A stretch of 64,000 nt of DNA from Phycisphaerae bacterium (lineage in GTDB: Bacteria > Planctomycetota > Phycisphaerae > SM23-33): assembly GCA_039683615.1 (NCBI GenBank), contig JBDKRA010000017.1, positions 266,235-330,234 on the forward strand. Direction: 5' to 3'. This document shows positions 25,505-41,669 of the stretch, piece by piece. Each line of letters opens with the position of its first letter. Positions within the stretch are counted from its first letter, which is position 1. A program made the translations under genes and the position numbers. The notes under the pieces are model-generated. The model saw only the letters and a list, made by a program, of their open reading frames with translations, did not search any database and had not been told where the DNA came from.

Positions 25505-27384
25505 TCCTGAGATGGCGTAATCCAGAATGGGCTCAGCCAGGCGCAGTGGCCGTCGCTCTGGCGCAGGCGGATGTAATAGTACTCGTGGGGCGGGTTCTTG
25601 CGGGCGGCCGGCGGGGTGTCGGTCCACTCGATGCTCACATCGTGCTGGTCGGCGGTGGCCTGAAAGCTCTTGAGCACCTTGCCGCAATGGATGATCTGCG
25701 TCTCTGCGATCGGCGCCGTGCCGCGCACGACGATCGTGAACTTCCGCGGCTGGTTCGGGGCGGCCTTGACGTCGCTGCCGATCGGGGCGCCGTTCAGGCG
25801 GGCGTCGGCCACGATCCGCGCGCCGCTGGTGGCGTAGCAGCGGCGCTGGGCGATGGCGTCGTAGACCCCGGCCGTGTCGAGCGTCTGGGCCTGAACGGCC
25901 GTGATGGCGTGGAAGACGGCCTGGGGCTGGCCCGGCAGCGGGCGGTGGTTGTCCGAGTCGCCGGTGAAGGCCGGCTTGTACCCCAGCGACAGCGCGTAGC
26001 GGATGGAGCTGTCGTCCTTGCCGGCATGACCGCCGGCGTGCCACTGGGGCTCATTCTCGTACGATTCCTGCGACGCCGGTCCGCGCATGATCTCGCCGGC
26101 GGCGAACGCGGATTTGTCGGCGATGTCGGGCCAGCGGGCGTTCTCGCCCAGCGGATGGGCCACGGCGATCATCGTCTTGCCGGCGATCATCACGCCGCTT
26201 AAGGCCTTGCAGAAACCCGCCGAATCGAGCCCGCCCCGGGAGCCCACGTGCTTGACGTAGGCGGCCATCGCCTTCTCGAAGCTGTCGAAATCGCGCGCCA
26301 TGAGCAACTGGTGTCCGGGCGGCCCGGCGATTTCCAGCGCCGGCACGCGGCAGAACTTGCCGGTCTGCTCGTGCCGGCGGCCGATGCGGGCGTAGTCGAC
26401 GTACGTCAGGTTGGCGAAGTCGCCCTGTTCGCTGATGTGGTCGCCGGGCCCGGTGAAGTCCAGGCCGATGCGGGTCCGTGCCCACGCGATCACGTCGTCG
26501 GTGGGGTAGTCGCCATCGGAGAAGCTGGTGTGCACGTGGATGTCGCCGAAGTAGATCGCCCGGGCGTCCATGCCCCGCGGCAGCGGGCTGCTGCGGCAGG
26601 TGCGCCCGGCGCTGTCGCTCACGTGCAGCGCGGGGGCCTCCTGCAGCTCCGCCGGCAATGGCGCCTCGGTCAACTCGCAGCCGGCCCTGGCCGGCACCGT
26701 CATCGACTTGCCGCCCTCGCCGCGGATCGTGTAGGTCACGCCCGCGCTGTCGGCGGGATTGTCGGCCTTGTCGAAGGCCTGGATCTGCAGCCGCCCGTCG
26801 GCCTTGCGGTATGCCTTGATGTACTGCGCCGGGCCGCTGAGGGTCCGCACGATCAGCGGCTCGCTCACCGGCGCGGCGGGCTCCTTGGCGGCCGTCACCG
26901 GCTCAAGCCACACGCCCGCCTGGCGCATCGTGTATCGCTGCGTCACGGGCGAGACGCCGTCATACTTGCGGCCGCGGACGGTGACCTTCGTGCCGGCGGG
27001 CAGGTCGCGCGGGGCTTTGACAATGGCCATGAGCCCGGACTGCTCGTACGCGCCCCACTTGCCCATGATGTCCGCAAAGGTCGGCACGTCGCGCAGGGCC
27101 AGCGGCTCGGCCACCCCTTCGACCGTGACGCTGGTGACCTGGAAGATGCCGACGATCAGCGGTCGCAACCGGCCCTCCTGGCGCAGGCGCAGCTCGGCGC
27201 CTGCGACAACCTTGCGGCTGAGCACCAGGTCAAAAGCCATCTCCGCCAGGTCCAGCCGCACGCCCGCCACCTTTGCCTGCCGATCCGCGCCAGCCCCGCT
27301 CGGTGTCGCAGCCGCGGCAGAACTCGCCGCACAACCGGCAATGAAGATGCTCGCCACCAGAAGAACGATGATCACCTGCGTCAT
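25501..27384 (-). CDS. Lipoprotein, PHP-family (DUF3604/CehA-like) metallohydrolase
   Basis: Lipobox IAGC; FGDIHVHTSFSDG, GDH, GDSDNH, RRCYATSG, AWLSPFW. Confidence 0.8.
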   Translation of the reverse strand: MTQVIIVLLVASIFIAGCAASSAAAATPSGAGADRQAKVAGVRLDLAEMAFDLVLSRKVVAGAELRLRQEGRLRPLIVGIFQVTSVTVEGVAEPLALRDVPTFADIMGKWGAYEQSGLMAIVKAPRDLPAGTKVTVRGRKYDGVSPVTQRYTMRQAGVWLEPVTAAKEPAAPVSEPLIVRTLSGPAQYIKAYRKADGRLQIQAFDKADNPADSAGVTYTIRGEGGKSMTVPARAGCELTEAPLPAELQEAPALHVSDSAGRTCRSSPLPRGMDARAIYFGDIHVHTSFSDGDYPTDDVIAWARTRIGLDFTGPGDHISEQGDFANLTYVDYARIGRRHEQTGKFCRVPALEIAGPPGHQLLMARDFDSFEKAMAAYVKHVGSRGGLDSAGFCKALSGVMIAGKTMIAVAHPLGENARWPDIADKSAFAAGEIMRGPASQESYENEPQWHAGGHAGKDDSSIRYALSLGYKPAFTGDSDNHRPLPGQPQAVFHAITAVQAQTLDTAGVYDAIAQRRCYATSGARIVADARLNGAPIGSDVKAAPNQPRKFTIVVRGTAPIAETQIIHCGKVLKSFQATADQHDVSIEWTDTPPAARKNPPHEYYYIRLRQSDGHCAWLSPFWITPSQE

Positions 27385-27542
27385 GCTCTCAGCTCCCTTG
27401 CTCGTCAGTGAGTCCGGCAGCGCCGCCCGCGCAGTGATTCTACCACGCGATGGTCCCTCGCACAGGCTCTCTGTTATAATGACCGCATGCCTATGTCACG
27501 AGAGAGTCACTCTGAACATTGATGGCGTCACAGGAGCACTCC

Positions 27543-29339
27543 ATGCACCAAATGAAAGCAAGCCTCGTCCTGGGTCTGGTCATCGCCGCGGCCATCGCCC
27601 TGGCCGCCCCGCTGCGGGCCGAAGAGGCCAACGGCCCCTTCGAGAACATCAAGTTCACACCTGTGGCCGCCACCTGGCAGTACAGCAACGACGGCGGCAA
27701 GACGTTCTCTGCCAAGGTTCTTCCCCCTCCTCCGCCAGGCCGCGAGAGCCCCAAGGACCACGTCGATACGTCCATGTACCAGTATGTCTGGAAGGGCACG
27801 TTCGACATCCCCGACCCGGCGAAGGTAGCCGGCGCGTTCGTCCGCATCTTTGAGAACAGCAGCCTGCCCGCAGGACCCCGCGCGTCCATCTGCAATGGCG
27901 ACCTCACGGCGGCCTCCGGCGGCTACTGGAAGGACCTGGGCTACTGCCCCACGCTGCTGGATGCGGTCATCAAGCTCAACGGAAAGGAAATCGAGTTGGC
28001 CCACGGGCCGATGCTGCAGTTCTGGGTCCCGCTGATCGGCCTTCAGGCCGGCGCCAACACCATCGAAATGAGCGGCCACGTGTACTCGTTCTGGGGCGGG
28101 GGTGGAGCCCGGGGGCCCTCCAGCGCCCTCGACGCCAAGATCATCGCAGCCGAGCCGCAACCGGCGAATATCTTCAACGGTCCGATCCTCGGCGACTTCG
28201 GCGGGGGATATTTTACACTGGCCTGCCGCACGCAGCTCCCAGCCGATCTGACGATCGAGGCCACGCCCGTCGAACCGCCGGGCCCGCCCGTGACGGTCAC
28301 CTCCAAGGGCGCCGTCTGGCACCGTGTGCGGGTCGAGGTGCCCAAGGGCACGAGCAAGCTTACCTACACGGTTTCGGCCAAGGTGGGCCAGCACGTGACG
28401 AAGCGAGGTCCCTATGCCGTCACGTTACCGGGCAAGGATTTCCGCTTCATCGCCTTCGGTTTCGCGATGCAGCACCCGGTCGATGACGCCAACGTGGCGA
28501 AGGATCCCTGGGCCATCGGGTCGCGGTTGATTCTCAAGGCCCGCCCGGACTTCGTCTGCAACACCGGCGACCTGCTCGAGCAGGAGGCCTGGTCGTTCAA
28601 CTGGGAGTCGGCGTATACCGGTCCGGCGGCCGAGATGCTGGCCCGCGTGCCGACGCTGATCACGCCGGCCAACCGCGACTGGACGGGCATCCTTAGCGAG
28701 CTGCACTGGTCGCCCGCGGCCGACACGTACGCCCACAACTGGACGAAGGTGGTAGGCCCCGTACGATTCATCTGCATCGACGGCAACGAGTCCTGGGTGC
28801 GGGGCGGCGCGAACGCCAAGTGGCTCGAAGGCATTCTCGTCGCGGCCAAGGACAAGTTCATCGTTGTGCTCAGCGGGTATCCGGCGTATTCCTCCGGCGT
28901 CAACAGCAAAGGTCTCTATGGCGGGCGAAAGCAGGTCCGCGACGTCGTCATGCCGCTGCTGGACAAATACAAGGCCACCATGATGCTCTCCTGTTGGGAC
29001 CCGGGGTATGAGCGCATCGAACCCCAGCCGGGAAAGGGCTGTACTCAGATCGTCACCAGTTGCAGCGGCTGGAAGGCCTTCCACCGCTGGAACACGCAGT
29101 TTGGTTCGCACGGCCAGGGGCCCACCGGACCCACCGCCAACGCCCGCGGCACCTTTGGCAAGGTAACCCTCCCTGACGGCCGAGAGTGGTGCGGCTACTG
29201 CGGCACCCGCCATTTCTGCGTCTTCGATGTCAAGGACGACGTGATCCGCATGCAGGTTCTGGCCTGCGGCAGCAGCCCGGATGTCGACATCAAGGACTTG
29301 AAGGTTCTCGACGAGAAGACCTTCAAGCCGAGGCCGTAG
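27543..29339 (+). CDS. Secreted purple-acid-phosphatase-fold protein with degenerate metal ligands
   Basis: Signal peptide; PDFVCNTGDL, VRFICID and YER in PAP order; His ligands replaced. Confidence 0.7.
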   Translation: MHQMKASLVLGLVIAAAIALAAPLRAEEANGPFENIKFTPVAATWQYSNDGGKTFSAKVLPPPPPGRESPKDHVDTSMYQYVWKGTFDIPDPAKVAGAFVRIFENSSLPAGPRASICNGDLTAASGGYWKDLGYCPTLLDAVIKLNGKEIELAHGPMLQFWVPLIGLQAGANTIEMSGHVYSFWGGGGARGPSSALDAKIIAAEPQPANIFNGPILGDFGGGYFTLACRTQLPADLTIEATPVEPPGPPVTVTSKGAVWHRVRVEVPKGTSKLTYTVSAKVGQHVTKRGPYAVTLPGKDFRFIAFGFAMQHPVDDANVAKDPWAIGSRLILKARPDFVCNTGDLLEQEAWSFNWESAYTGPAAEMLARVPTLITPANRDWTGILSELHWSPAADTYAHNWTKVVGPVRFICIDGNESWVRGGANAKWLEGILVAAKDKFIVVLSGYPAYSSGVNSKGLYGGRKQVRDVVMPLLDKYKATMMLSCWDPGYERIEPQPGKGCTQIVTSCSGWKAFHRWNTQFGSHGQGPTGPTANARGTFGKVTLPDGREWCGYCGTRHFCVFDVKDDVIRMQVLACGSSPDVDIKDLKVLDEKTFKPRP

Positions 29340-29359
29340 CACGGGCGTCTCGCCCCTGC
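29336..29359 (+). repeat. REP (family A) overlapping a stop codon
   Basis: gtagcacgggcgtctcgcccctgc; the TAG of GTAG is the upstream gene's stop. Confidence 0.75.
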
Positions 29360-29386
29360 TCCCTGACCGTTCAAAGGAGAATCGTG

Positions 29387-30886
29387 ATGCACTGCACGCG
29401 TGCCCTCGTTCTTGCCGCTGCGATTCTTGCCGCTCCCGCGCTCGTAGCGGCCGCCGATCCGGCGGCGCCTGAAGCCGTGTCCGGCCGTGTCTTCCTCGAC
29501 GCCAACGGCAACGGTATCCTGGACCCGGGCGAGAAGGGCGTGCCCGGCGTGCGCATCACCGACGGCGTGCAGTTCGTCGCCACCGGCCCCGACGGGTCGT
29601 ACTCTATCCGCATCGCGGCCGATCCGACCTTCCGCTACCGCCTCGCCCAGACGGTCGGGATGTGCTGGCCGAGCGGCACCTGGCCGAGCGGGCCGTGGTG
29701 GGTCCGCCTGAGCAACATCAAAGACGCGGCGGCCGTGAACTTCCCCCTGCGGCAGGAGGTGCAGAAGATCCCCTTCGTCTTCCTGCACATGACGGACCCG
29801 CACGAGTTCTTCAACGCCGGCAACGCCGACTTCCTGGAGTGGATGAACGCCATGGCGCCCGACGTGAAGTTCATGATCGACACCGGCGACTCCTTCCGGC
29901 CCAGGGATGTCGAGAAGCCCTACAGGCTCATGTTCATCACGGCCGTGGGCAACCACGACACGTGGGAGTCGGCCACGCCCAACCCCATCGCCGACGAGGA
30001 TGGCTACGGGCCCTTCACCAAGCGCCTGGGCCCGGCGCGCTGGAGCTTCGACTGCGCCGGTGTCCGCTTCGTCGGCGTCGACGTGATCGAGGATCGCAAG
30101 CAGCCGGCGATGATCGACTGGCTGGCCAAGGACCTCGCATCGGTCAAGCCCGGCACGCGAATCGTGCTGTCGTATCACTACCCCGACCCCGGCGGCGACG
30201 CGCGCTTCGTCAAGCTCCTGCGCGACTACAAGGTCGAGCTCATCCTCGGCGGGCACAGCCACACCTACGCCTTCTCGGCCAACGGCCCGGCGCCGCTGCT
30301 GGCGGCGTATCACTGGCAGCCGCCGGGAACGTGCAACGTGCTGGCCGTTTCCGACACGCGCATCGACCACGCCGTGTACTGCCTGGGCTGCCAGTGGAAG
30401 GTGAAGGCGTTGGGCGGCCACTCGCGCCGCTGCCCGATCGTCGACCGCACGCCCGTCTCGGCCGTCACCGCGCGACTGGCCGCCAGGCATGAAGTCCCGC
30501 CCGGCCCCCTCGATGCCGCCAGGACCATCACCCTGACGCAGCCGCACGTGTACGTGCAGGCCAAGATCGCAATGGGCAGTGCCAAGCGCATCGCCCTGCG
30601 CCTGGGCCCAGCCGACAAGCCGGTGGAGATCATCTACACCGGCCAGCGCCTGAACGTCGACGGCGCCGACTACCCCTTCTCCCCGCGCCCGCCGCAGACG
30701 ACGCTGAACCTGACCTTGGTCACCCAGGACAACACCCTGACCCTCTGGGCCAACAACTTCTTCTTCATCCCCAAGCGCACCGCGATGACCAAAGCCACCG
30801 CCCTGACCATCACCGCCGAAGGCGGCCAAGCCAAGATCGAATCGATGACCGTCCAGGAGATCAAACCCGACTCTGACAAGAAATAG
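29387..30886 (+). CDS. Secreted calcineurin-like metallophosphoesterase
   Basis: VSGRVFLDANGNG N-domain; TDPH, TGD, GNHD, YHYP and GHSH motifs intact. Confidence 0.85.
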   Translation: MHCTRALVLAAAILAAPALVAAADPAAPEAVSGRVFLDANGNGILDPGEKGVPGVRITDGVQFVATGPDGSYSIRIAADPTFRYRLAQTVGMCWPSGTWPSGPWWVRLSNIKDAAAVNFPLRQEVQKIPFVFLHMTDPHEFFNAGNADFLEWMNAMAPDVKFMIDTGDSFRPRDVEKPYRLMFITAVGNHDTWESATPNPIADEDGYGPFTKRLGPARWSFDCAGVRFVGVDVIEDRKQPAMIDWLAKDLASVKPGTRIVLSYHYPDPGGDARFVKLLRDYKVELILGGHSHTYAFSANGPAPLLAAYHWQPPGTCNVLAVSDTRIDHAVYCLGCQWKVKALGGHSRRCPIVDRTPVSAVTARLAARHEVPPGPLDAARTITLTQPHVYVQAKIAMGSAKRIALRLGPADKPVEIIYTGQRLNVDGADYPFSPRPPQTTLNLTLVTQDNTLTLWANNFFFIPKRTAMTKATALTITAEGGQAKIESMTVQEIKPDSDKK

Positions 30887-31079
30887 CTCGCCTCCCCCCG
30901 ACCCGACAAGCTCTCATGCCTTCGGCCTGGTCAGTTCACTGACCCAGGGCAGTAAAAACGAAACCGCGCCCGGTCACATGACTGATGACGACACATTGAG
31001 GGTTGACGCATCGGGGGTCAGAGGCGAAATTGGCGGGCGTTGGGAAGCGGCGTCTTTCACTTGTGGGAGAATCGACAGC

Positions 31080-32618
31080 ATGAGACACATTTGCCTTCTG
31101 ACGGCGGTATGCGTTTTCAGCGGTGCGGCGCTGGCCGACGGCAAGAGCGATTTCGACCTTCTCTTCGCCCAGGAGGCGCGCAAGGTCGAGGCCGCCAACA
31201 ACGCACAGGCCTTTGTCGCCTTTGCCGGCAAGATCATGGACGCGGCCAAGGAGATGCGGGATGCGCCCGCGTCGCAGGCCTTCTTCTACGAGCAGGCGAT
31301 GGAGTACGGCTCCAGGAGCCCCACCGGATATCCCTGCGCGCTCAATGCCATCCAGGCCCTGGTTGCCCTGCAACCGGATCAAAAAGCCAAGTGGAGCCAG
31401 AAGACTCTCTCGATCGCGCAGCGCTGGTTTCAGGCCGCGCGCGGTCAGGATCGCCAGGACGCCGCCCGGCCCTATGTCGACGCGCTGATCGAGCAGGCGG
31501 AAATCCAACTGCGAGCCGGCAACGCCGGAGCCGCCGCGGACCTGTACAACAAAGCGATAGAGCCCGGCACGCTTGCGGTCTATCGCGTGGCCGAAATTCG
31601 CAGCGGCGCCGGCGCTGCGGCTGCGCTGATCCAGACGGCCGAGGCGCGCGAAAAGCTCACGGCGAGGCTGGCCGAGAACCCCAAGGACGTCCCGACCAGG
31701 GAGGCGATGATCTATCTGTATCTCATCCAACTGGACAACCCCGCTAAGGCGAAGGAACTGCTGGCCGAGGGAGTAAACAAGCCCCTGGAGTCCGGCCTGC
31801 AACTGGCGTGCAAAGACGTGCAGGCCCTGGGTGATCGGGACGCCCTGACGTTGGGCGAGTGGTATCTCAATGAGATTATGCCCAAGGCCTCGGGCGAGGG
31901 GAAGATCAAGATGCTGGTTCGCGCCAAGGCATGCTTCACGCGATTCAAAGCCATTCACCCCGCCCGAGACGCCCTGGGGTACAAGGCCCAGCAATCGATC
32001 GACAAGTTGGAGACCCTGATCGAGAAGGTCCCGGCGCCGATTGCAGGCACCCCCCAGCCTACCGCCTTGGAGCTGCGCGGGACGGAGCTCTGGCACAAAT
32101 TCGTCAGTGATTACTCCAAGGCTTACATGGGCGGCGACGTGGGGCCAAAGCGGGCTGAGGCGGTGAAAAAGCTGGTGCAGGAGTTTACCGCCAAGGTCAA
32201 TAACCGCAGGATGTGCCTGACGGGCACAGTCAAGTGGGTCTCTTATCGGGCAATCGGCGCGTACGCAATGCAGATTAATCTCGATGCTGGCGGCGACACC
32301 GCAAATCCCAACTTCGCGGGAGGGTACTACGCTGACGGGCGGCCCATTGAATTGCTCCTGACGATGGCCGCGGCGACGGCCGACAAGATATCCCGGGGCG
32401 ACGCTGTGACGCTGCGCGGTCTTTGCGCCGCCTCCGTGCGGGAGGGCAATAACCAGCCCACTACTCCCGTGGGGCAGCCTCTGGTCTTCATGATTGCCGT
32501 GGGCTCCGACGGCAAGGGGACCATCGAGCATCTGGTCGTGTCGTTGAAGGAATGCAAGGTGCACGTCGCCGGCGCGGTGGCGGCGATACTGACGCTGCCA
32601 AGCCGGCGTGGTTCCTGA
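31080..32618 (+). CDS. Secreted hypothetical protein (helical repeats plus beta-rich C-terminus)
   Basis: Signal peptide ending ALA; RBS ggag; long uninterrupted ORF. Confidence 0.7.
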   Translation: MRHICLLTAVCVFSGAALADGKSDFDLLFAQEARKVEAANNAQAFVAFAGKIMDAAKEMRDAPASQAFFYEQAMEYGSRSPTGYPCALNAIQALVALQPDQKAKWSQKTLSIAQRWFQAARGQDRQDAARPYVDALIEQAEIQLRAGNAGAAADLYNKAIEPGTLAVYRVAEIRSGAGAAAALIQTAEAREKLTARLAENPKDVPTREAMIYLYLIQLDNPAKAKELLAEGVNKPLESGLQLACKDVQALGDRDALTLGEWYLNEIMPKASGEGKIKMLVRAKACFTRFKAIHPARDALGYKAQQSIDKLETLIEKVPAPIAGTPQPTALELRGTELWHKFVSDYSKAYMGGDVGPKRAEAVKKLVQEFTAKVNNRRMCLTGTVKWVSYRAIGAYAMQINLDAGGDTANPNFAGGYYADGRPIELLLTMAAATADKISRGDAVTLRGLCAASVREGNNQPTTPVGQPLVFMIAVGSDGKGTIEHLVVSLKECKVHVAGAVAAILTLPSRRGS

Positions 32619-32965
32619 GCCTTTTCTCTCGCTCCGCGGCAGCTGACGAAGGGGACAAACGACTTTTCTGCGCTGGTCGCGCCGGGCACTCTACCCGATG
32701 ACGGGAAATCGCGGACGACGAGGAGGCTTGCGCCCGGGTGGCATGTACAAAACTCCGTCGGGCGCGTCCCTGATCTGTCACCGCGCGACACCGGTCGCGC
32801 GGGCGTGGGTGGCGAATCTGCTTGTGGGCTATGCGGCGTGCGTGGCGGCAGAAAGTGCGTTGGCAGCGATGCTGTCGCGGTGGGGTGCGGAAGATTTCTT
32901 TGAGGCGTACACGGTCAAAGTCGTGAACCTGGGCGTCGAGGATCCGGATGCTGACGAAGGGGTGG

Positions 32966-33187
32966 ATGATGACATTCCCGTCTGACAAGCCGGCGGCCTC
33001 TCCATTCATTCGGCCCAAGGAACTGGCGCAGCGGTGGCAATGCTCGCGCACCAGTGTCGACAGGATCGCCAGGCGAGCGGGGCTGTCTCGCGTGTGTCTG
33101 GGCGAAGGGAAGAACGGGATCGTCTGCTATGTGCGAGAGGAGGTGATTGCCTATGAAGGCTCCCGGCGGGTGCAACTGCAGCCGTGA
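32966..33187 (+). CDS. Excisionase-like HTH DNA-binding protein
   Basis: FIRPKELAQRWQCSRTSVDRI...YVREEVIAYE, a MerR/Xis-type winged HTH pattern. Confidence 0.7.
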   Translation: MMTFPSDKPAASPFIRPKELAQRWQCSRTSVDRIARRAGLSRVCLGEGKNGIVCYVREEVIAYEGSRRVQLQP

Positions 33188-33263
33188 CCCGCCCTGCTAT
33201 CTGACAAAGGCTGCTCTACCCAAAGACTACCCCGGAGAACGTGCAAGTCCGCCGGGGTAGTTT

Positions 33264-34187
33264 TCAGTTAGCAGATTGGTCTTCCTGTGTCGGAGCAGGC
33301 ACGGGTTGCGAGGTTGGAGGTGTCTTGGGTACGGCGATTTTCAGGTAGGCCTCAGCGAATCGTTTCCCGATTATCATCTGACTGGCAGTGGTAAAGTGGA
33401 TGTTGCCGGGATTGTAAGGGAGGTCAGCCGTAGTGATGAAACCATAATGGTCAAGTTTAACAGAGGCTTGTTGTTCCTGAACAGATCTCCATGCGGGGCT
33501 GTTACCTTGTCCTATCTGGGCAAGGATAATTGGTAGGTTGGGCTCGCGAAGATCTTGCCGAATGTCAGTGGCGAATCGTTCGAACATTCGAGCCCAATCA
33601 TGTGGATGGTCATCCGGCTTGCCTTCGGCGTCGTTCTCGCCCTGCAGGAACAATATTCCTGCCAAATTGCCCATGGCGGACGCGCCCTTGGATTTCATGA
33701 GGCATCGGCCGTACAAAGAAGATTCTGCCAGGTTCCTTTGCCATTTGCTGATGTTAGTCCCGCCTGCCGCGCAGGGAACCAGACCGACAGCGCAAGTGGA
33801 ATTCCCTTGAACAAGTTCGGCTGCAAAAGCAAGGCCGGGGCCAACCATGTTTCCGTCTAGTGGTTCACGGGCGACAGCCCATATGTACTCTTTCTTCGGA
33901 AAAACAAAAACGCGGTTTTTGGTATCCAGCGGCACGTACTCTTTGGGCAAACCCCCACCTTCCATGTTAGACTGGCCGGCCAAGATGAATATGTCGAGTT
34001 TGCCTTTATAGGTATCTGGTACGGCACAGGACGGTGGAGTTCCGTGTCGTGGGTTGAGAAGTTTAATGAGATTGCCGAGTCCGTATGATTTCTGGAGGGC
34101 CGCGCCTCCAATGAAGGAAACCGCTACAAGTGAGATTGGCAGGAGTAGACGAATGGCAACGGTACGCGTGGTCGTAGTGTGGCCCAT
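33264..34187 (-). CDS. Sialate O-acetylesterase / CE6-like (SASA) esterase
   Basis: ILAGQSNMEG, GILFLQGEND, NIHF; N-terminal membrane anchor; lower GC. Confidence 0.85.
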   Translation of the reverse strand: MGHTTTTRTVAIRLLLPISLVAVSFIGGAALQKSYGLGNLIKLLNPRHGTPPSCAVPDTYKGKLDIFILAGQSNMEGGGLPKEYVPLDTKNRVFVFPKKEYIWAVAREPLDGNMVGPGLAFAAELVQGNSTCAVGLVPCAAGGTNISKWQRNLAESSLYGRCLMKSKGASAMGNLAGILFLQGENDAEGKPDDHPHDWARMFERFATDIRQDLREPNLPIILAQIGQGNSPAWRSVQEQQASVKLDHYGFITTADLPYNPGNIHFTTASQMIIGKRFAEAYLKIAVPKTPPTSQPVPAPTQEDQSAN

Positions 34188-34292
34188 AAACAAAGCAGTC
34201 CTTGTACGTAAAGGGAGTAAACTCTCAGCCCCAAGTTACTGAACTAGCCAACCCACTGATGGGGGACTTATTGTCCTGTTTATTGTTTTCGG

Positions 34293-34590
34293 CTAGCCTA
34301 TGATTCGAGTTGAATCTTTGTTGGGGATAAAGCTGGGGCTGAATTCCACGCTATCCATGAGTGTCTCAGGAATGAGACAGGCATAGTGGTGGCGGCATAT
34401 GTCGGGGCTGTTGCCCATCAAGGTGCTGATCTTGTAGAGGCTCTCGCCCTTTGAGGCTAACTGACTGCCGAAGGTATGGCGGTAGTCGAGGCAGCCCCAG
34501 GATAGCTTGGCGGCGGTGTTGGCGGCGCGCAGGTCCTGGCTGAAGTTGTCGGCGTCCCAGCGGGGTTCGGATGGGCCGGGGAAGAGCAGG
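34293..34590 (-). pseudogene. C-terminal fragment of a tyrosine recombinase/integrase
   Basis: Not in the ORF track. Translates LLFPGPSEPRWDADNFSQDL...LDYRHTFGSQLASKGESLYKISTLMGNSPDICRHHYA; in-frame stop upstream and no ATG. Confidence 0.8.
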
Positions 34591-34733
34591 AGAGCAGTAG
34601 AACAGCCCTTCGACTCGCTTTGCTCGCTCAGGGCCAGGAGACCGCAGTGGAGGCCGTGCAGAAAGCAATGGTCCGCTGGGGCTGTGCGTTCTTCCCCTTC
34701 TCCTGCTCTCCTGATCTACTCTCCACTGCTCTG
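34582..34733. repeat. Inverted octamer arrays (AGAGCAGG-like) enclosing a cccttcgactcgctttgctcgctcaggg palindrome
   Basis: agagcaggagagcagtagaacag ... ctcctgctctcctgatctactctccactgctct; abuts the integrase truncation point. Confidence 0.6.
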
Positions 34734-34734
34734 T

Positions 34735-34766
34735 AAAAAAGGCCACGCCGTTGGCGTGGCCTTTTT
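34735..34766 (-). terminator. Rho-independent (bidirectional) terminator, likely the original tRNA-fMet terminator
   Basis: aaaaaaggccacgcc-gtt-ggcgtggccttttt directly after the displaced tRNA 3' fragment. Confidence 0.85.
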
Positions 34767-34768
34767 CA

Positions 34769-34787
34769 TAGCGGGGGCAGGTTTCGA
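34769..34787 (-). repeat. att site: duplicated 3' end of tRNA-fMet
   Basis: tagcgggggcaggtttcga versus tagcggggggaggattcga at 40250-40268 (17/19 identical). Confidence 0.88.
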
Positions 34788-34872
34788 CGGTAGTAAGAAG
34801 CCGCGACAGGTAGGATTCAGATACTGAGTAGATTAGGCCATTCGCAGTTGGATGGTCTTCGATATGTTAGTG

Positions 34873-35151
34873 CTAGACACTAAATATAGCCCCAGTATTC
34901 CAAGTCATTACTGCGCTAGCCATCATGGCTATAGCACTAATCAAAAGCCCAACTCCAAGGGTAATGAGTCGGGTCTTCCTTTTCGGGATCAACCATTGCA
35001 TTGCGACACAAAGAATAGTGGAGAGTAGTGCGATAGCTCCCACTGTAGCCTTGGCATTACCATGTCCAACCTGCAAGGTGAGGATTCCATAGAGTAGAGT
35101 GATCCAAAGCGCCAGAACGTAAGAGGGGTGGATAAGCAATGCGCTCTTCAT
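34873..35151 (-). CDS. Small 3-TM membrane protein (island cargo)
   Basis: RBS aaaggag; three hydrophobic segments; AT-rich. Confidence 0.6.
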   Translation of the reverse strand: MKSALLIHPSYVLALWITLLYGILTLQVGHGNAKATVGAIALLSTILCVAMQWLIPKRKTRLITLGVGLLISAIAMMASAVMTWNTGAIFSV

Positions 35152-35570
35152 GATCAGATCTCCTTTCCGCATCTTCCTCTGACAACGTCGCGTCGCGTGT
35201 CGGTAAATCGCTAGAGTAGTTGGCATATGTCCCATAGAGGTATTGTAAACGTGTGAACCTTATCGGGCAATTGTGCCAGCACGCAATGGGGCCGCCGCGA
35301 GTCGGGATAACCTCAACCAGGCAGTAGGGCTCTAACGGCGCTGATAACCTTTCCCGGCAAATGCCGCTCCAATGGCCCGACATAGGGGGGGCGACTCGCG
35401 GCGGCGGGTCCCATTGCGGGCGGTGGCATGAGCAGGACTCGGGCTGGCCGAATCCGGATCGCTTCCTTATCATGCGGGACATGGTCGGGCGTCACGTGCA
35501 ATCTTGGTGTCGGGGAAAGCCGGTGATCATTGCGTCCATCGGGGTCACGGTGGTGGGATGCGCAGAGGCG

Positions 35571-36515
35571 ATGTCTGAATTGGTGGATGCAGCGAGAGAG
35601 GGAGGGCGATATCCCGCGCTGAAGTGGCCTGTTGATCCGGAGGCATGGGTCAAGCTGTACCGTGGGCATCGGCGGCTGCAGCGGGTGGTGTTAGATCAGT
35701 TTCTGGGAGGGCGAGAGGTCATCGAAGGCGGTGAGGCGGAGGCTACAGTGTCCGACGTCGTGGAGTTGATGCAAGTGGGTCTGCGGCGGTCTGGAAGGAT
35801 TACGGGGGCAGAGGTGCATGAGGTGACGCGGATTCTGAAAGAGCACCCAAAGGAAGTCATGGAGGGGGCGGAGGCGGCGAGAGAGGCCTGGGAAGGGCTG
35901 ATGTCGGATGATGACAAGATTGGACCGGAAGACGACAAGGAGATGAAGGAAGCTTTGCGCCAGCCGGAGGTACTGTTCTTTTTGCTTGTTTGGGGGCCAT
36001 GCTTCTTTGAGTACGGGCAGTATCCGCCTCGACTGATGCGGAAGGCCCGCCAGGGTGACCCTGACGCGCTAGAGAAGATTCTGCGGCTGGACAAGCGGGC
36101 AATACATGATCCAAAGATTGCGCGGGAGTGGTCCACGGCCAGCATGAATCGCAACGCGTATTTTGATCGGCTGGCTGGGGCGCTTGCCGGGGAACCGGTC
36201 AAGCTATTGGGTTTGTCTCAAGTGAAGGTTCTGATGGCCGCGCTTCTATCGAACTTGTCGAAGCTGCTTGCAGATGGGGTAGAGCGGGCGTGTGAATCGA
36301 TGGGGCAGCCGGTTCCGCCTGCACTGATCCCACTGGCAAAGCGACTCAGTGGGCGGGATATCCGGGAGCTCTTTGACGCGTACCAGAAGGATGTTAAGAG
36401 GAACAGCCTGGCCTGCGATAACGATCTGCCTGGGGATAATGAGGCGCTGAAGAAAGCTCTGCAGCGGAATCGGCCTTTGTGGGATTTCCTCTTCGAGTCG
36501 GCGGGTCTTTCCTGA
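35571..36515 (+). CDS. Hypothetical protein (island)
   Basis: Long helical, charged ORF; start uncertain (ORF is open from 35361). Confidence 0.6.
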   Translation: MSELVDAAREGGRYPALKWPVDPEAWVKLYRGHRRLQRVVLDQFLGGREVIEGGEAEATVSDVVELMQVGLRRSGRITGAEVHEVTRILKEHPKEVMEGAEAAREAWEGLMSDDDKIGPEDDKEMKEALRQPEVLFFLLVWGPCFFEYGQYPPRLMRKARQGDPDALEKILRLDKRAIHDPKIAREWSTASMNRNAYFDRLAGALAGEPVKLLGLSQVKVLMAALLSNLSKLLADGVERACESMGQPVPPALIPLAKRLSGRDIRELFDAYQKDVKRNSLACDNDLPGDNEALKKALQRNRPLWDFLFESAGLS

Positions 36516-36582
36516 GGCGGGACATAGATTGCCTCGCCGGGTGTCCCGGCGCTCTTGACTGTGCAGCCGTAGAGTTGGCTGC

Positions 36583-36801
36583 ATGGTTCCAAAGAAGTCA
36601 ATTCGTGGCGGCGAGACGGCGGGCGGGATCCGGCCCCATGGGGCCGGGTCCGCGCGCGTCGCGGCCGCTGCTGATCCCGAGCCTGTCCTGGGGCGTATTG
36701 TCGTGCCACGGATGGATAAGGCTGGGGATGCGGACCGCTTGCGGCGGATCCTGGCGTCGCTGATCGCGCGGCGGGTGGTCCAAAGGGGGGCTTATGACTA
36801 A
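36583..36801 (+). CDS. Small basic protein overlapping the rep start
   Basis: 72 aa ORF whose stop lies in the nick-site hairpin; start uncertain. Confidence 0.35.
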   Translation: MVPKKSIRGGETAGGIRPHGAGSARVAAAADPEPVLGRIVVPRMDKAGDADRLRRILASLIARRVVQRGAYD

Positions 36802-36811
36802 CAGCCCCCCT
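36784..36811 (+). promoter_or_regulatory. Putative rolling-circle nick site (dso/oriT) hairpin
   Basis: AGGGGGGCT-tatgactaac-AGCCCCCCT: perfect 9 bp stem containing CTAACAG, the core seen at Rep_trans/MOBT nic sites. Confidence 0.75.
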
Positions 36812-38002
36812 GCAAAGGTGAGACTAGAGGATGGAGAGGCAGCAAGGGTCCTGGCATCGGGGATCGATTCGCTGGTGCTGACGGTATACCTCCAATGGGT
36901 GAAAGAGGACTTCCTGGAGAAGCTGCACCAACTCAAGGGCCAAGCTCAACTGACTGGGCGAGAGGTTCCCGTTAGCCTGGAGGGGCAAACACCAGAGGAC
37001 GCGGTTAGCTGCAATATGCAGACGAGCGGCGCGGGGGCCTGGGCATATCGGCTGGAAAGTGCGGAGTACACGCTGTGCGTCGGGACTTGGGCCAACGTCA
37101 TATCGCGCCCCAACGTAAAGATCGAGGTGCGGTCCGAAACATTGTGGAGACTGGGGGCTCGGCGTTCGGTGGAGCGGATCGTGGGGATTCTCAAACGGCA
37201 CGGAGCGTCGGTGGGGCTGGTGAAAGTCAGTCGGGCGGACCTCTGCGCGGATGTGCTGCTGCCGGAGACGTCCTGGCGGGAAGACCTTCGGGGTTGCCTG
37301 GTCAGCCGGGCCTCGGATATTGAGCCTCGCTACAGCCGCCGGGAGTTCTCGGGCTTCTCGCTGGGCAAGGGTGCCATCGTCGGGCGTCTTTACAACAAGC
37401 CCAAGGAGATTGCGGAAAAGTCTTTCAAGGAGTGGATGTATCCGATCTGGGGCGTCGAGGCCGTGCCGGAGGGATACAAGATCGTGCGCGTGGAGTACCA
37501 GCTTCGCCGCGAAGCGCTCAAGGAACTGGGCGTCGATGTCGTGGATGATCTGTGGCGGTACGAGCCGAACATCTGGGCGTACTGCTGCCAGAATTGGCTG
37601 ACGGTAAAAGACAATCCTGGTGCGCATCACACGCAGCGGAATCTGTTGGATTGGTGGGAGGTGGTGCAGAACGGATACAAAGGCGCTCAGGGAGCCTGGC
37701 CCCAAGTACGTGCCAAGGCCGTGAAAGCCAATCTCAGGGCGCTGCTGCAGCAATGGGTGGGGCTGACCGGCAGCATCGCGGCAGTGATTCGTGGAGAGAA
37801 CCCTTACGAGAAGGACGGGGCGCTGAGCCTGGACGGATGTATTCAAGACGCGCTGCGTCTTGCACGGGTGGCGGGATTGACCGACGAATTGCTGATGGAG
37901 AAGGTGCGATTGAAGGACGCGAAGTACAGGCGCGGCGGAGAAAAATACCGCAAGGCTGTTGCCAGTCGTCCAGGTGCTGCAGAGTTCTATCGAGGTGCGT
38001 GA
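36794..38002 (+). CDS. Rep_trans-family rolling-circle replication initiator / MOBT-like relaxase
   Basis: GIDSL, VSRADLCAD, FSLGKG...GRLYNKPKE (catalytic Tyr) and VRVEYQLRR motifs in Rep_trans order. Confidence 0.8.
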   Translation: MTNSPPAKVRLEDGEAARVLASGIDSLVLTVYLQWVKEDFLEKLHQLKGQAQLTGREVPVSLEGQTPEDAVSCNMQTSGAGAWAYRLESAEYTLCVGTWANVISRPNVKIEVRSETLWRLGARRSVERIVGILKRHGASVGLVKVSRADLCADVLLPETSWREDLRGCLVSRASDIEPRYSRREFSGFSLGKGAIVGRLYNKPKEIAEKSFKEWMYPIWGVEAVPEGYKIVRVEYQLRREALKELGVDVVDDLWRYEPNIWAYCCQNWLTVKDNPGAHHTQRNLLDWWEVVQNGYKGAQGAWPQVRAKAVKANLRALLQQWVGLTGSIAAVIRGENPYEKDGALSLDGCIQDALRLARVAGLTDELLMEKVRLKDAKYRRGGEKYRKAVASRPGAAEFYRGA

Positions 38003-38040
38003 TCTGGAGCGGAGACAGCGTGAAAAGAAATATGAGGGAA

Positions 38041-38093
38041 TATTCTTGATTTACTCTCAGAGCATAGAGTAGAATATACGGTGTTCTAGAGTA
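38041..38093 (+). promoter_or_regulatory. Sigma70-like promoter overlapped by TACTCT/AGAGTA operator boxes
   Basis: TTGATT (38046) N18 TAGAAT (38070); inverted repeat TACTCT-N8-AGAGTA at 38052-38071; another TAGAGTA at 38087-38093. Confidence 0.55.
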
Positions 38094-38105
38094 AGGAGTG
38101 GTGAT

Positions 38106-38525
38106 ATGAAGATCGAGGTATCGGCGGAGACATTTGAGAGGCTGCAGCGGCACTCTGAGCCATTGGTTGACACGGCCGAGAGCGTGATCATCAAACTATT
38201 GGATAGCTACGAGGCACGAAAGGGCGCGAAGATGACTATCGGGACAGAACGTCAAGATGACTCCAGGAGCGATGTGCCTACGAAAGTGGCAGAGCCGCAT
38301 GATCTACGAGGCTTTCAAAAAGAGGTTTGGGAGTTGGTTATCGAGCCGATGCCGACGAAGAGTTTCACTCTCCGAGATGTCTATGCGAGGGAGACATCGT
38401 TGGCAAAGCTTCGCCCACACGTGAAAGAGCTGCGAGCGTCAATTCGGGGTACGCTTGAGAAGCTGAGAGACAGAGGGCTTATCGAGTTCATCGACAATCA
38501 AGGAACGTACAGGAAGAATCGTTAG
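38106..38525 (+). CDS. SeqA-N-like RHH domain fused to a DpnI-C-like winged helix
   Basis: MKIEVSAETFERLQRHSEPLVDTAESVIIKLL resembles the SeqA N-terminus; FTLRDVY...IRGTLEKLRDRGLIEF...GTYRK resembles the DpnI C-terminal wH; RBS aaggag. Confidence 0.7.
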   Translation: MKIEVSAETFERLQRHSEPLVDTAESVIIKLLDSYEARKGAKMTIGTERQDDSRSDVPTKVAEPHDLRGFQKEVWELVIEPMPTKSFTLRDVYARETSLAKLRPHVKELRASIRGTLEKLRDRGLIEFIDNQGTYRKNR

Positions 38526-38535
38526 GGGGTGCGAG

Positions 38536-40323
<1,788 letters not shown>

Positions 40324-40334
40324 ATCATGTCTTA

Positions 40335-40363
40335 ATCGTAAACGGGCGTGCGCGCGAAGTCAA
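40335..40363 (-). promoter_or_regulatory. Sigma70 promoter of tRNA-fMet
   Basis: TTGACT-N17-TACGAT on the minus strand, 11 nt before the tRNA. Confidence 0.75.
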
Positions 40364-40388
40364 CGGCCTCGAAATATTTGTGGGGGAA

Positions 40389-40556
40389 GCTGTCGGCTCT
40401 CAGCTTTCAGCTTTCAGCAAGAACGGGCGGGGATGACGGCGGCCCCGGTAACTGATGGATGCCAGCTCTCTCGCTCTCAGCCTTCAGTTATCAGCAAGAA
40501 CGGGAGGGATTGGCTGCGGCCGCTGTTACTGATGGCTGAGAGCTGATAGCTGAAAG
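40389..40556. repeat. Tandemly duplicated heptamer-array element (GCTTTCA-like / GCTGATA-like)
   Basis: Two ~75 bp units, each with gctctcagc..tcag...tcagcaagaacggg...actgatgg, closed by the inverted arm gctgagagctgatagctgaaag. Confidence 0.8.
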
Positions 40557-40565
40557 TTTGGGGCT

Positions 40566-41669
<1,104 letters not shown>

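Follow-up and report, generated by a model that had tools for sequence, protein, structure and literature searches.

We found that a small gene on a mobile island of a Phycisphaerae bacterium encodes a nuclease-free, two-domain protein, which probably represses its own gene as a dimer or oligomer and thereby also controls the integrase that is co-transcribed with it on the island. The open reading frame (ORF) lies at positions 38106 to 38525 of a 64,000-nucleotide stretch of DNA (hereafter the window; GenBank contig JBDKRA010000017.1, our contig C17, positions 266,235 to 330,234, in the 4.6-Mb assembly GCA_039683615.1). Its product joins an N-terminal module that remotely resembles the N-terminal domain of SeqA (SeqA-N), through a flexible linker, to a winged helix of the DpnI_C family; the gene stands in an operon-like layout with a serine integrase, and an array of AGAGT/ACTCT half-sites lies upstream of it and is conserved in its relatives. 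DpnI-type winged helices have been known for directing nucleases to methylated DNA, and SeqA-N from a single gamma-proteobacterial replication factor. Here, the two modules appear to be combined in a small regulator that lacks a nuclease domain and is encoded on a mobile island, with a reader whose recognition residues have changed and with a conserved putative operator that provides a directly testable DNA target. In the open literature, subscription journals and the supplements of Helbrecht et al. aside, we found no papers describing the SeqA-N-like plus DpnI_C architecture, and none on PF17726, DpnI_C or the "Dam-replacing HTH" (helix-turn-helix). The two domains are both known; what is new, as far as we have seen, is that they are joined in one protein, that the recognition helix is altered and that the putative operator is conserved. 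The gene and its parts are as follows.

38106..38525, + strand: ORF of 139 aa (coordinates include the stop codon), SeqA-N-like module, linker and DpnI_C winged helix (Pfam, AlphaFold model, Foldseek)
38106..38219, + strand: N-terminal module, residues 1-38, with remote SeqA-N likeness; common to the NF047386 N-terminus and DUF7557
38220..38297, + strand: linker, residues 39-64, variable in length and sequence across the family
38298..38522, + strand: DpnI_C-type winged helix, residues 65-139 (Pfam, PDB searches, model)
38430..38471, + strand: recognition helix, residues 109-122 (alignment to DpnI; PMC3424567)

The original prediction, made from the sequence alone, had described the protein as a nuclease-free fusion ending in a DpnI winged helix, and both parts of that description were borne out. 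Pfam DpnI_C (PF17726) covered residues 72 to 137 with 46.4 bits against a gathering cutoff of 23 (E = 4.5e-12), and the same family was matched by 16/16 family members. When all PDB sequences were searched with phmmer, DpnI (4esj, residues 189-256) was the only chain below E 0.01, and the match improved to E 2.8e-6 with a 7-sequence family profile. The AlphaFold model had a predicted local distance difference test score (pLDDT) of about 90 across residues 65-139. Its top three Foldseek matches in the PDB were the DpnI chains 4kyw_A, 4esj_B and 4esj_A (root-mean-square deviation 1.1-1.5 Å over 67-70 columns, 33-34% identity); the next matches, to forkhead and MukE winged helices, had E-values weaker by about 40-fold or more. 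The model superposed on DpnI residues ~186-254 as a three-helix, three-strand winged helix.

No nuclease domain (PD-(D/E)xK, HNH, GIY-YIG or PLD) was detected in the 139-residue protein, in which DpnI_C was the only Pfam family to pass, and no nuclease family was seen in the N-module-bearing relatives among the matches listed from an exhaustive profile search of proteins of any length. Winged-helix proteins without a nuclease were not unusual in that search: 64 of the 150 listed representatives had at most 120 residues, and the longer ones carried DpnI, PLD, HNH, T5orf172, SRA, MTaX1, TFIIB or sigma-70 region 4 domains. The DpnI, PLD, HNH, T5orf172 and SRA fusions reported for type IV enzymes thus recur among the matches listed here. 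The ORF protein shares its reader domain family with the winged-helix fusion type IV enzymes FcyTI, HhiV4I, Ahi29725I and Aba4572I (PMC11037411), but those are nucleases and it is not. Likewise, it has the fold and family of R.DpnI (4esj, 4kyw) but neither the PD-(D/E)xK domain of that enzyme nor any other nuclease domain. The isolated DpnI winged helix has been reported to bind DNA by itself and to compete with the enzyme (PMC3424567). Helbrecht et al. 2024 (PMC11037411) screened nuclease and NTPase fusions, and the portions of that paper available to us do not describe the N-module architecture.

The recognition helix differs from that of DpnI at residues involved in methyl reading. In the phmmer alignment, E228-K229-I230-R231-Q232 of DpnI correspond to A111-S112-I113-R114-G115 of the ORF protein, so that IRQQLQ of DpnI reads IRGTLE here, exactly as first noted. 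According to Siwek et al. (PMC3424567), E228, R231 and Q232 wall one methyl pocket and E228, K229 and Q232 the other, with Q232 as the only DpnI side chain that touches a pyrimidine. R231 is kept as R114 and is invariant in the 16 family members, across which the helix follows the pattern x-[S/A/T]-[I/V/A]-R-[G/A/N/H]. Among 160 related winged-helix instances (from 156 proteins), at least 92 had x-K-[I/V/L]-R-Q. The first of these helix positions varies in the 160 instances (A, D, P, E, S), and the loss of E228 therefore means little, since that position also varies among canonical members. Judged from these alignments, it is the loss of the K229 and Q232 equivalents that sets the family apart from its x-K-[IVL]-R-Q relatives, and the residue set of a Gm6ATC (adenine-methylated GATC) reader (E228, K229, R231 and Q232 of DpnI) is incomplete in the ORF protein.

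The proposal that the protein reads GATC methylation, and with it Gm6ATC reading, is not supported. Two of the pocket residues are lost (K229 and Q232 being S112 and G115 here), the conserved upstream motif is ACTCT/AGAGT and contains no GATC, and four genomes retain this motif although none has a methylase next to the locus, all of which disfavors methyl reading. The putative target of the ORF protein would thus be AGAGT-type half-sites, unlike the Gm6ATC of R.DpnI. GATC itself was rejected as a candidate target; its only copy near the promoter overlaps the stop codon of the upstream replication gene. Over the whole window GATC was not depleted (456 copies against ~337 expected). The DpnI_C family does include proven readers of N6-methyladenine (6mA; PMC11037411, PMC3424567), and according to Helbrecht et al. 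(PMC11037411) the 6mA/GATC motif is kept in only ~10% of the winged-helix fusion proteins, with no specificity assigned to the rest. A match to DpnI_C alone should therefore not be taken to mean a methyl-adenine reader, and the recognition helix needs to be checked.

For the N-terminal module, the likeness to SeqA pointed out in the original prediction stood as a remote one, but membership of the Pfam family did not. Pfam SeqA_N (PF17206) gave no match for the ORF protein at E ≤ 1, matched 0/16 family members at E ≤ 10, and had no match at the ORF locus in a six-frame genome search at E ≤ 10. Profile comparison nevertheless recovered the likeness. In hhalign, a profile of 21 N-module sequences placed residues 2-32 on residues 3-33 of E. 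coli SeqA (sequence taken from MG1655) without gaps and with a score of 20.5. None of 300 shuffles of SeqA residues 1-45 reached this value (mean 8.2, standard deviation 2.05, maximum 16.9; a distance of ~6 standard deviations), and of 68 natural 45-mers taken from the E. coli stretch around it only SeqA's own N-terminus did so; the E. coli ribbon-helix-helix control YbfE scored 8.8, equal to background. With a 9-sequence profile that included more distant N-modules, the SeqA-N chain 1xrx_A was the best of 177,635 PDB sequences (E = 0.0099, profile positions 1-35 on 1-35). The longer SeqA chain, 3fmt_A, followed with E = 0.7, and chains of Arc, CopG or MetJ were absent at E ≤ 10. The N-module of one distant relative, L032, touched Pfam SeqA_N directly (E = 0.038), the only one to do so. 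Taken together, the profile alignments point to a real but remote, superfamily-level relative of SeqA-N that is not a member of Pfam SeqA_N. No SeqA_C domain was matched in the ORF protein by Pfam, and a BLASTP comparison of the ORF protein with E. coli SeqA returned nothing below E 3.

In the model, the module consists of a short N-terminal strand-like stretch, a helix at residues 7-16, a loop of ~7 residues and a second helix at residues 24-41. Its pLDDT was 58-61 in the full-length model and 73 when the module was modelled alone, and linker residues 40-59 fell below 50. A two-copy complex prediction for residues 1-45 from a 16-row alignment scored 0.30 against a mark of 0.42, a value that weighs neither way on pairing. 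Structure searches with the 45-residue monomer model were uninformative, as would be the case if the module folds as a dimer: Foldseek returned one PDB row at E 6, and a wide VIA-align search gave nothing above Z 3.5, with long helices only.

In SeqA, residues 1-35 serve dimerization and oligomerization, residues 34-63 form a flexible linker and residues 64-181 bind DNA (Chung et al. 2009, PMC2691817). SeqA filaments need I21, exposed at the tip of the αA-αB loop, as well as A25 and T18, and the linker lets the DNA-binding heads reach GATC pairs at differing spacings and orientations (PMC2691817). The ORF protein has the same order of parts, a module followed by a flexible linker (~26 residues here, ~26-30 across the two proteins) and a C-terminal DNA reader. 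In the gapless alignment with SeqA (structures 1xrx and 3fmt), I21 falls on L20; the family keeps Leu or Phe at this position, and the Pro preceding it is nearly invariant. The dimer anchors D7 and E9 of SeqA, in contrast, are not conserved in the family, the ORF protein lacks the SeqA_C domain, and its gene lies on a mobile island, whereas SeqA is a chromosomal replication factor.

The closest named counterparts of the module lie elsewhere. The N-terminus of NF047386, the NCBI "T4SS effector SepA family" (first ~50 positions), was matched by 16/16 family members (best E 1.2e-10), and Pfam DUF7557 by 10/16 (best E 4.3e-5). The ORF protein is not a full-length NF047386 protein: it scored 39.1 bits against a cutoff of 110, over residues 2-50 only. 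It has the first 45-50 residues in common with NF047386 and DUF7557 proteins, but beyond these the SepA-family proteins consist of an unrelated domain, and the repeats upstream of their genes differ in sequence.

The DNA in front of the gene carries short repeated half-sites in the window and in all three further family loci for which DNA was at hand, two on metagenome contigs (L020, L021) and one in a genome (L022). The features of the four upstream regions are listed below.

38046..38075, + strand: promoter-like site TTGATT-18-TAGAAT (consensus scan), within the 103-nt gap after the upstream replication gene
38053..38063, no strand assigned: imperfect palindrome ACTCT-C-AGAGC, putative operator, just 3' of the -35 hexamer
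38066..38070, + strand: AGAGT half-site that abuts and overlaps the -10 hexamer
38088..38092, + strand: AGAGT half-site, 22 nt after the previous one, abutting AAGGAG (38093-38098)
L021, metagenome contig: ACTCTAGAGT, then TACTCT
L020, metagenome contig: ACTCT-T-AGAGT and ACTCT-G-AGAGT, plus a fifth ACTCT
L022, genome contig labelled as a Pseudomonadota metagenome-assembled genome: AGAGTATACTCT, plus one more ACTCT

In the 100 nt 5' of the start codon, ACTCT/AGAGT occurs three times in the window (ACTCT at 38053, AGAGT at 38066 and 38088), four times in L021, five times in L020 and three times in L022. It ranked first of all 5-mer classes, with a minimum of three copies per locus and a total of 15, and the overlapping GAGTA came second. 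A total of 15 was reached in 0/20000 mononucleotide shuffles of the four regions (shuffle maximum 7), and the background in three long sources was 0.06-0.18 copies per 100 nt. A -35-like hexamer stands at -58 to -60 from the start codon at 4/4 loci, and the half-sites span -55 to -14, i.e., from this hexamer to the ribosome-binding site, with one extra copy at -74 in L021. Their arrangement varies by locus, being inverted with 0-1 nt between them, everted, or direct at 22 nt. Compared with the query alignments by which they were detected, the proteins of these loci show 49-68% identity, and their gene neighbors differ. Repeated or inverted sites over the gene's own promoter that are conserved among orthologues, as in autorepressor-type genes, were thus present at 4/4 loci, and the stretch 38041-38093, which the original prediction had singled out for gel-shift assays, contains the conserved half-sites.

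Similar repeats were noted at two other places in the window. One local cluster, at 35020-35220, has AGAGTA at 35022, 35091 and 35213 and AGAGT at 35096; it lies inside a small membrane-protein ORF on the minus strand, just before a 384-residue ORF, and, apart from the promoter region, no place in the 64-kb window but 35020-35100 packs three AGAGT into 80 nt. In addition, an inverted pair, AGAGT-TTC-ACTCT, is found at 38359-38371 within the ORF itself, in the codons for K-S-F-T-L, and may be either a coincidence or an internal site.

The gene is followed closely by the integrase, in the operon-like position initially described. The relevant neighbors are these.

36794..38002, + strand: Rep_trans-like rolling-circle replication initiator, 402 aa (PHROG 33635, Atlas clusters)
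38536..40290, + strand: large serine recombinase (integrase), 584 aa, with Resolvase, Recombinase and Zn_ribbon_recom domains
40249..40324, - strand: tRNA-Met (CAT), abutting the island

An AAGGAG ribosome-binding site at 38093-38098 precedes the ATG of the ORF by 7 nt, and the stop codon is separated from the integrase ATG (38536) by 10 nt (38526-38535). A scan of 36400-40600 found no terminator-like site between the two genes, the sole match being at 39593-39606. Its Resolvase, Recombinase and Zn_ribbon_recom domains, together with a match to PHROG 95 "integrase" (E = 4.8e-81), identify the 584-residue product as a large serine recombinase.

These features can be joined into a regulatory scheme. 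The SeqA-N-like module would pair the protein into dimers and perhaps higher oligomers, and the flexible linker would tether two or more DpnI-type winged helices, which would recognize short half-sites, AGAGT(A)/(T)ACTCT, distributed across the promoter of the gene itself. Occupied half-sites would block RNA polymerase and so lead to self-repression, and this repression would extend across the 10-nt gap to the co-transcribed serine integrase. We infer four of these steps, namely, that the ORF protein binds the half-site array, that the winged helix rather than the N-module is the reader, that binding represses transcription, and that the N-module pairs the protein. The varied geometry of the half-sites would suit independently tethered reading heads, as described for the SeqA linker (PMC2691817). 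Of the roles initially listed for the protein, that of a repressor fits best, while that of a recombination directionality factor was weakened by the absence of an adjacent recombinase in L021 and L022.

Several observations weigh against such an autorepressor. Taken by themselves, the three short repeats of the window do not exceed the number expected by chance in 150 nt, only four family loci with DNA underlie the motif count, and the motif was noticed before it was counted, which the unbiased enumeration of 5-mers answers only in part. The promoter scan called a sigma-70-like site in the window and in L020 but none in L021 and L022. Both of these have a perfect TTGACA and, 16-17 nt further on, TACTCT at the -10 position, which matches only 3/6 positions of TATAAT and so fails the scan. 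As for the integrase, a second promoter-like site lies within the 3' end of the ORF (38491-38519), and the integrase may therefore also be transcribed independently. In L021 the next ORF, with no known family in Pfam and no informative counterpart in the Atlas, takes the place of a recombinase, and in L022 the gene stands alone between housekeeping-type genes with no same-strand gene following, so that the family is not tied to integrases; L020 is too short for its recombinase linkage to be judged. Finally, palindromes of other sequence lie upstream of relatives that have just the N-module in common with the family, and the N-module may therefore be the operator reader.

That last point leads to an autoregulator of a different kind, in which the N-module reads the operator via a two-stranded beta-ribbon in the style of ribbon-helix-helix proteins and the winged helix is an accessory contact or a sensor. 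We consider this unlikely. It draws on the palindromes of the N-module-only proteins (ATGT[A/T]ACATAT in L028 and L029, GGTTACC/GTAACC in L030 and L031), on the C-terminal parts of these relatives, which differ from that of the ORF protein and matched nothing in Pfam, and on the strand-helix-helix order of the model; SeqA-N is classed with the Met-repressor-like folds. However, the central position of the ribbon is Glu here (K-I-E-V-S), as in SeqA (I-E-V-D), and Arg in the relatives (V-I-R-I-S), the searches returned no Arc, CopG or MetJ chain and left YbfE at background, and the variable half-site geometry would fit a symmetric ribbon poorly. In SeqA, moreover, the N-terminal domain dimerizes and oligomerizes while the C-terminal domain binds DNA (PMC2691817). 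The same architectural parallel, of an oligomerizing segment, a linker and a DNA reader (residues 1-35 onward in PMC2691817), could instead suggest a true SeqA analogue, an oligomerizing reader of a modification state whose mark would be other than Gm6ATC, or the absence of that mark, and which would tie integrase expression or replication of the element to replication or to arrival in a new host. The proven 6mA readers within the DpnI_C family (PMC11037411, PMC3424567) would agree with this, as would a D12-class adenine methyltransferase encoded on contig C19 of the same genome and the small side chains that replace the pocket walls, which leave room for another pocket. Even so, it seems improbable. 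The K229 and Q232 equivalents are lost family-wide, while at least 92 of the 160 related instances keep x-K-[IVL]-R-Q; the motif lacks GATC and its center is not consistently ApT (CTAG in L021, TATA in L022); its retention in four genomes argues for intrinsic recognition that is independent of a host methylase; no methyltransferase was noted among the listed ORFs at L021 and L022 or the scanned island proteins; and the low share of winged-helix fusions that keep the 6mA/GATC motif (Helbrecht et al., PMC11037411) points the same way. A narrower form, in which an oligomerizing counterpart of SeqA senses, through its altered DpnI-type pocket with small residues in place of K229 and Q232, whether AGAGTA-type sites of the element are modified, is distinctly improbable; if it were true, integrase expression and rolling-circle replication would switch on in newly replicated DNA or in a host without the mark.

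Two further roles start from the setting and the build of the protein rather than from its promoter. A small protein encoded directly upstream of, and co-oriented with, a serine integrase on an island that ends at a tRNA could be a recombination directionality factor or an accessory protein for the attachment (att) sites. This is nevertheless very improbable, since in the two relatives with enough flanking DNA (L021 and L022) no recombinase is adjacent, and since in the window the half-sites cluster at the promoter, with none found by a window scan near 40200-40300 or at the left end of the island. To our knowledge, the known serine-integrase directionality factors act by protein contact, and none belongs to the family of the ORF protein. 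The build of the protein also resembles that of DNA-bridging proteins such as Rok, which has an oligomerization domain, a linker and a winged helix, and a protein of the element that organizes the nucleoid, silences genes or protects sites from restriction could be built in this way. For this we see only the slightest chance. The shared architecture lends it thin support, and AGAGTA is somewhat frequent in the island, with 9 of the window's 14 copies within 33886-38093; this count is, however, inflated by the A+T content of the island, which exceeds that of the remaining window, and the conservation and precise placement of the half-sites at the promoter of the gene speak for a specific operator. 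Rok has been called a xenogeneic silencer (PMC6212790), and DNA-bridging proteins are treated in PMC6936261. The autorepressor remains the favored account of the protein.

The gene lies within a strain-specific segment, as follows.

30870..40249, no strand assigned: strain-specific segment (island) of ~9.4 kb, missing from genome G1182 of the same genus; left boundary approximate

Genome G1182 has ispG and tRNA-Met, and the resemblance between it and the window breaks off at position 40250, where the tRNA has its 3' end. When G1182 was searched with window positions 26000-40300, the matches covered 26000-30869 and the tRNA, and 30870-40249 gave nothing except one 245-nt stretch at 69% identity. 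Because only the flanks are covered in this way, we regard the gene as part of a strain-specific segment, ~9.4 kb long and bordering directly on tRNA-Met. The G+C fraction drops from ~0.65 to 0.52-0.60 between ~33100 and 40300, with a positive GC skew throughout, and the last 42 nt of the integrase ORF overlap the opposite-strand tRNA-Met gene. An 18-mer search found no tRNA-derived direct repeat at the left end of the island. The sites of serine recombinases share only a short core, and a missing tRNA repeat is not unexpected. The best local match, 11 nt at 33211-33221, was rejected as an att repeat, as its score of 22 compared with 17-21 in three control stretches. The other island genes encode a SASA-family esterase, a small membrane protein, a small helix-turn-helix protein and two products that match no family, and the D12-class adenine methyltransferase is encoded outside this segment, on contig C19.

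Upstream of the ORF, across a gap of 103 nt, the 402-residue Rep protein matched PHROG 33635 (E = 8.6e-13), and its nearest Atlas clusters were Rep_trans-type replication initiation factors (feature scores 0.96-0.97, TM score 0.80). A 36-nt stretch within this gene (37118-37153) is 72% identical to the first codons of the ORF (38109-38144), the encoded residues being K-I-E-V-R-S-E-T-L-W-R-L in Rep and K-I-E-V-S-A-E-T-F-E-R-L in the ORF protein; this may reflect chance or be a trace of recombination. On the far side of the island, at 40396-40544 between tRNA-Met and ispG, there are two 72-nt direct repeats that are 81% identical and flanked by inverted GCTCTCAGC-type arms. Pieces of ~40380-40425 match several contigs of the same genome and of relatives at ~90% identity, and this looks like a small dispersed repeat.

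The two-domain family is rare. A word-based search gave 8 clusters, and the exhaustive profile search gave 1009 proteins at E ≤ 0.001, with ~15 of the 150 listed representatives matching both domains. No full-length relatives were found in 400 further genomes of the window's phylum, where the matches were to the winged helix only, in 400 genomes of the class of L022 besides L022's own, or in viral contigs. In scans of GTDB genomes, the first family alignment yielded no locus and another alignment yielded one (L022), and metagenome contigs yielded the two others (L020 and L021). In L021, a distance of 0.85 kb separates the homologue from an opposite-strand tRNA-Met (CAT) gene.

The SeqA-N-like module itself seems to be used more widely as a component of island-borne proteins, among them the SepA-named NCBI family. 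According to a review (PMC12676571), the founding member of that family was found on a genomic island near a tRNA and recombinases; the name "T4SS effector SepA family" may not describe the role of most members. Two full-length NF047386 proteins that start with the same module, L028:1489-2058 (- strand) and L029:1501-2073 (+ strand), each have their palindrome twice within ~130 nt just upstream, a layout typical of autoregulated DNA-binding proteins. A third architecture, of 137-144 residues, was seen in L030:1495-1926, L031:1495-1905 and L032:36-458; here, the same N-module, with the Arg in its strand, precedes a C-terminal domain of ~90 residues that matches no Pfam family, and the palindromes of L030 and L031 lie upstream of the genes. 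Lastly, a 300-residue protein, P0047, carries the N-module, a SepA-like middle domain and a C-terminal DpnI_C domain with the helix Q-K-L-Q-Q, and because it unites all three parts, the modules appear to have been shuffled in several combinations.

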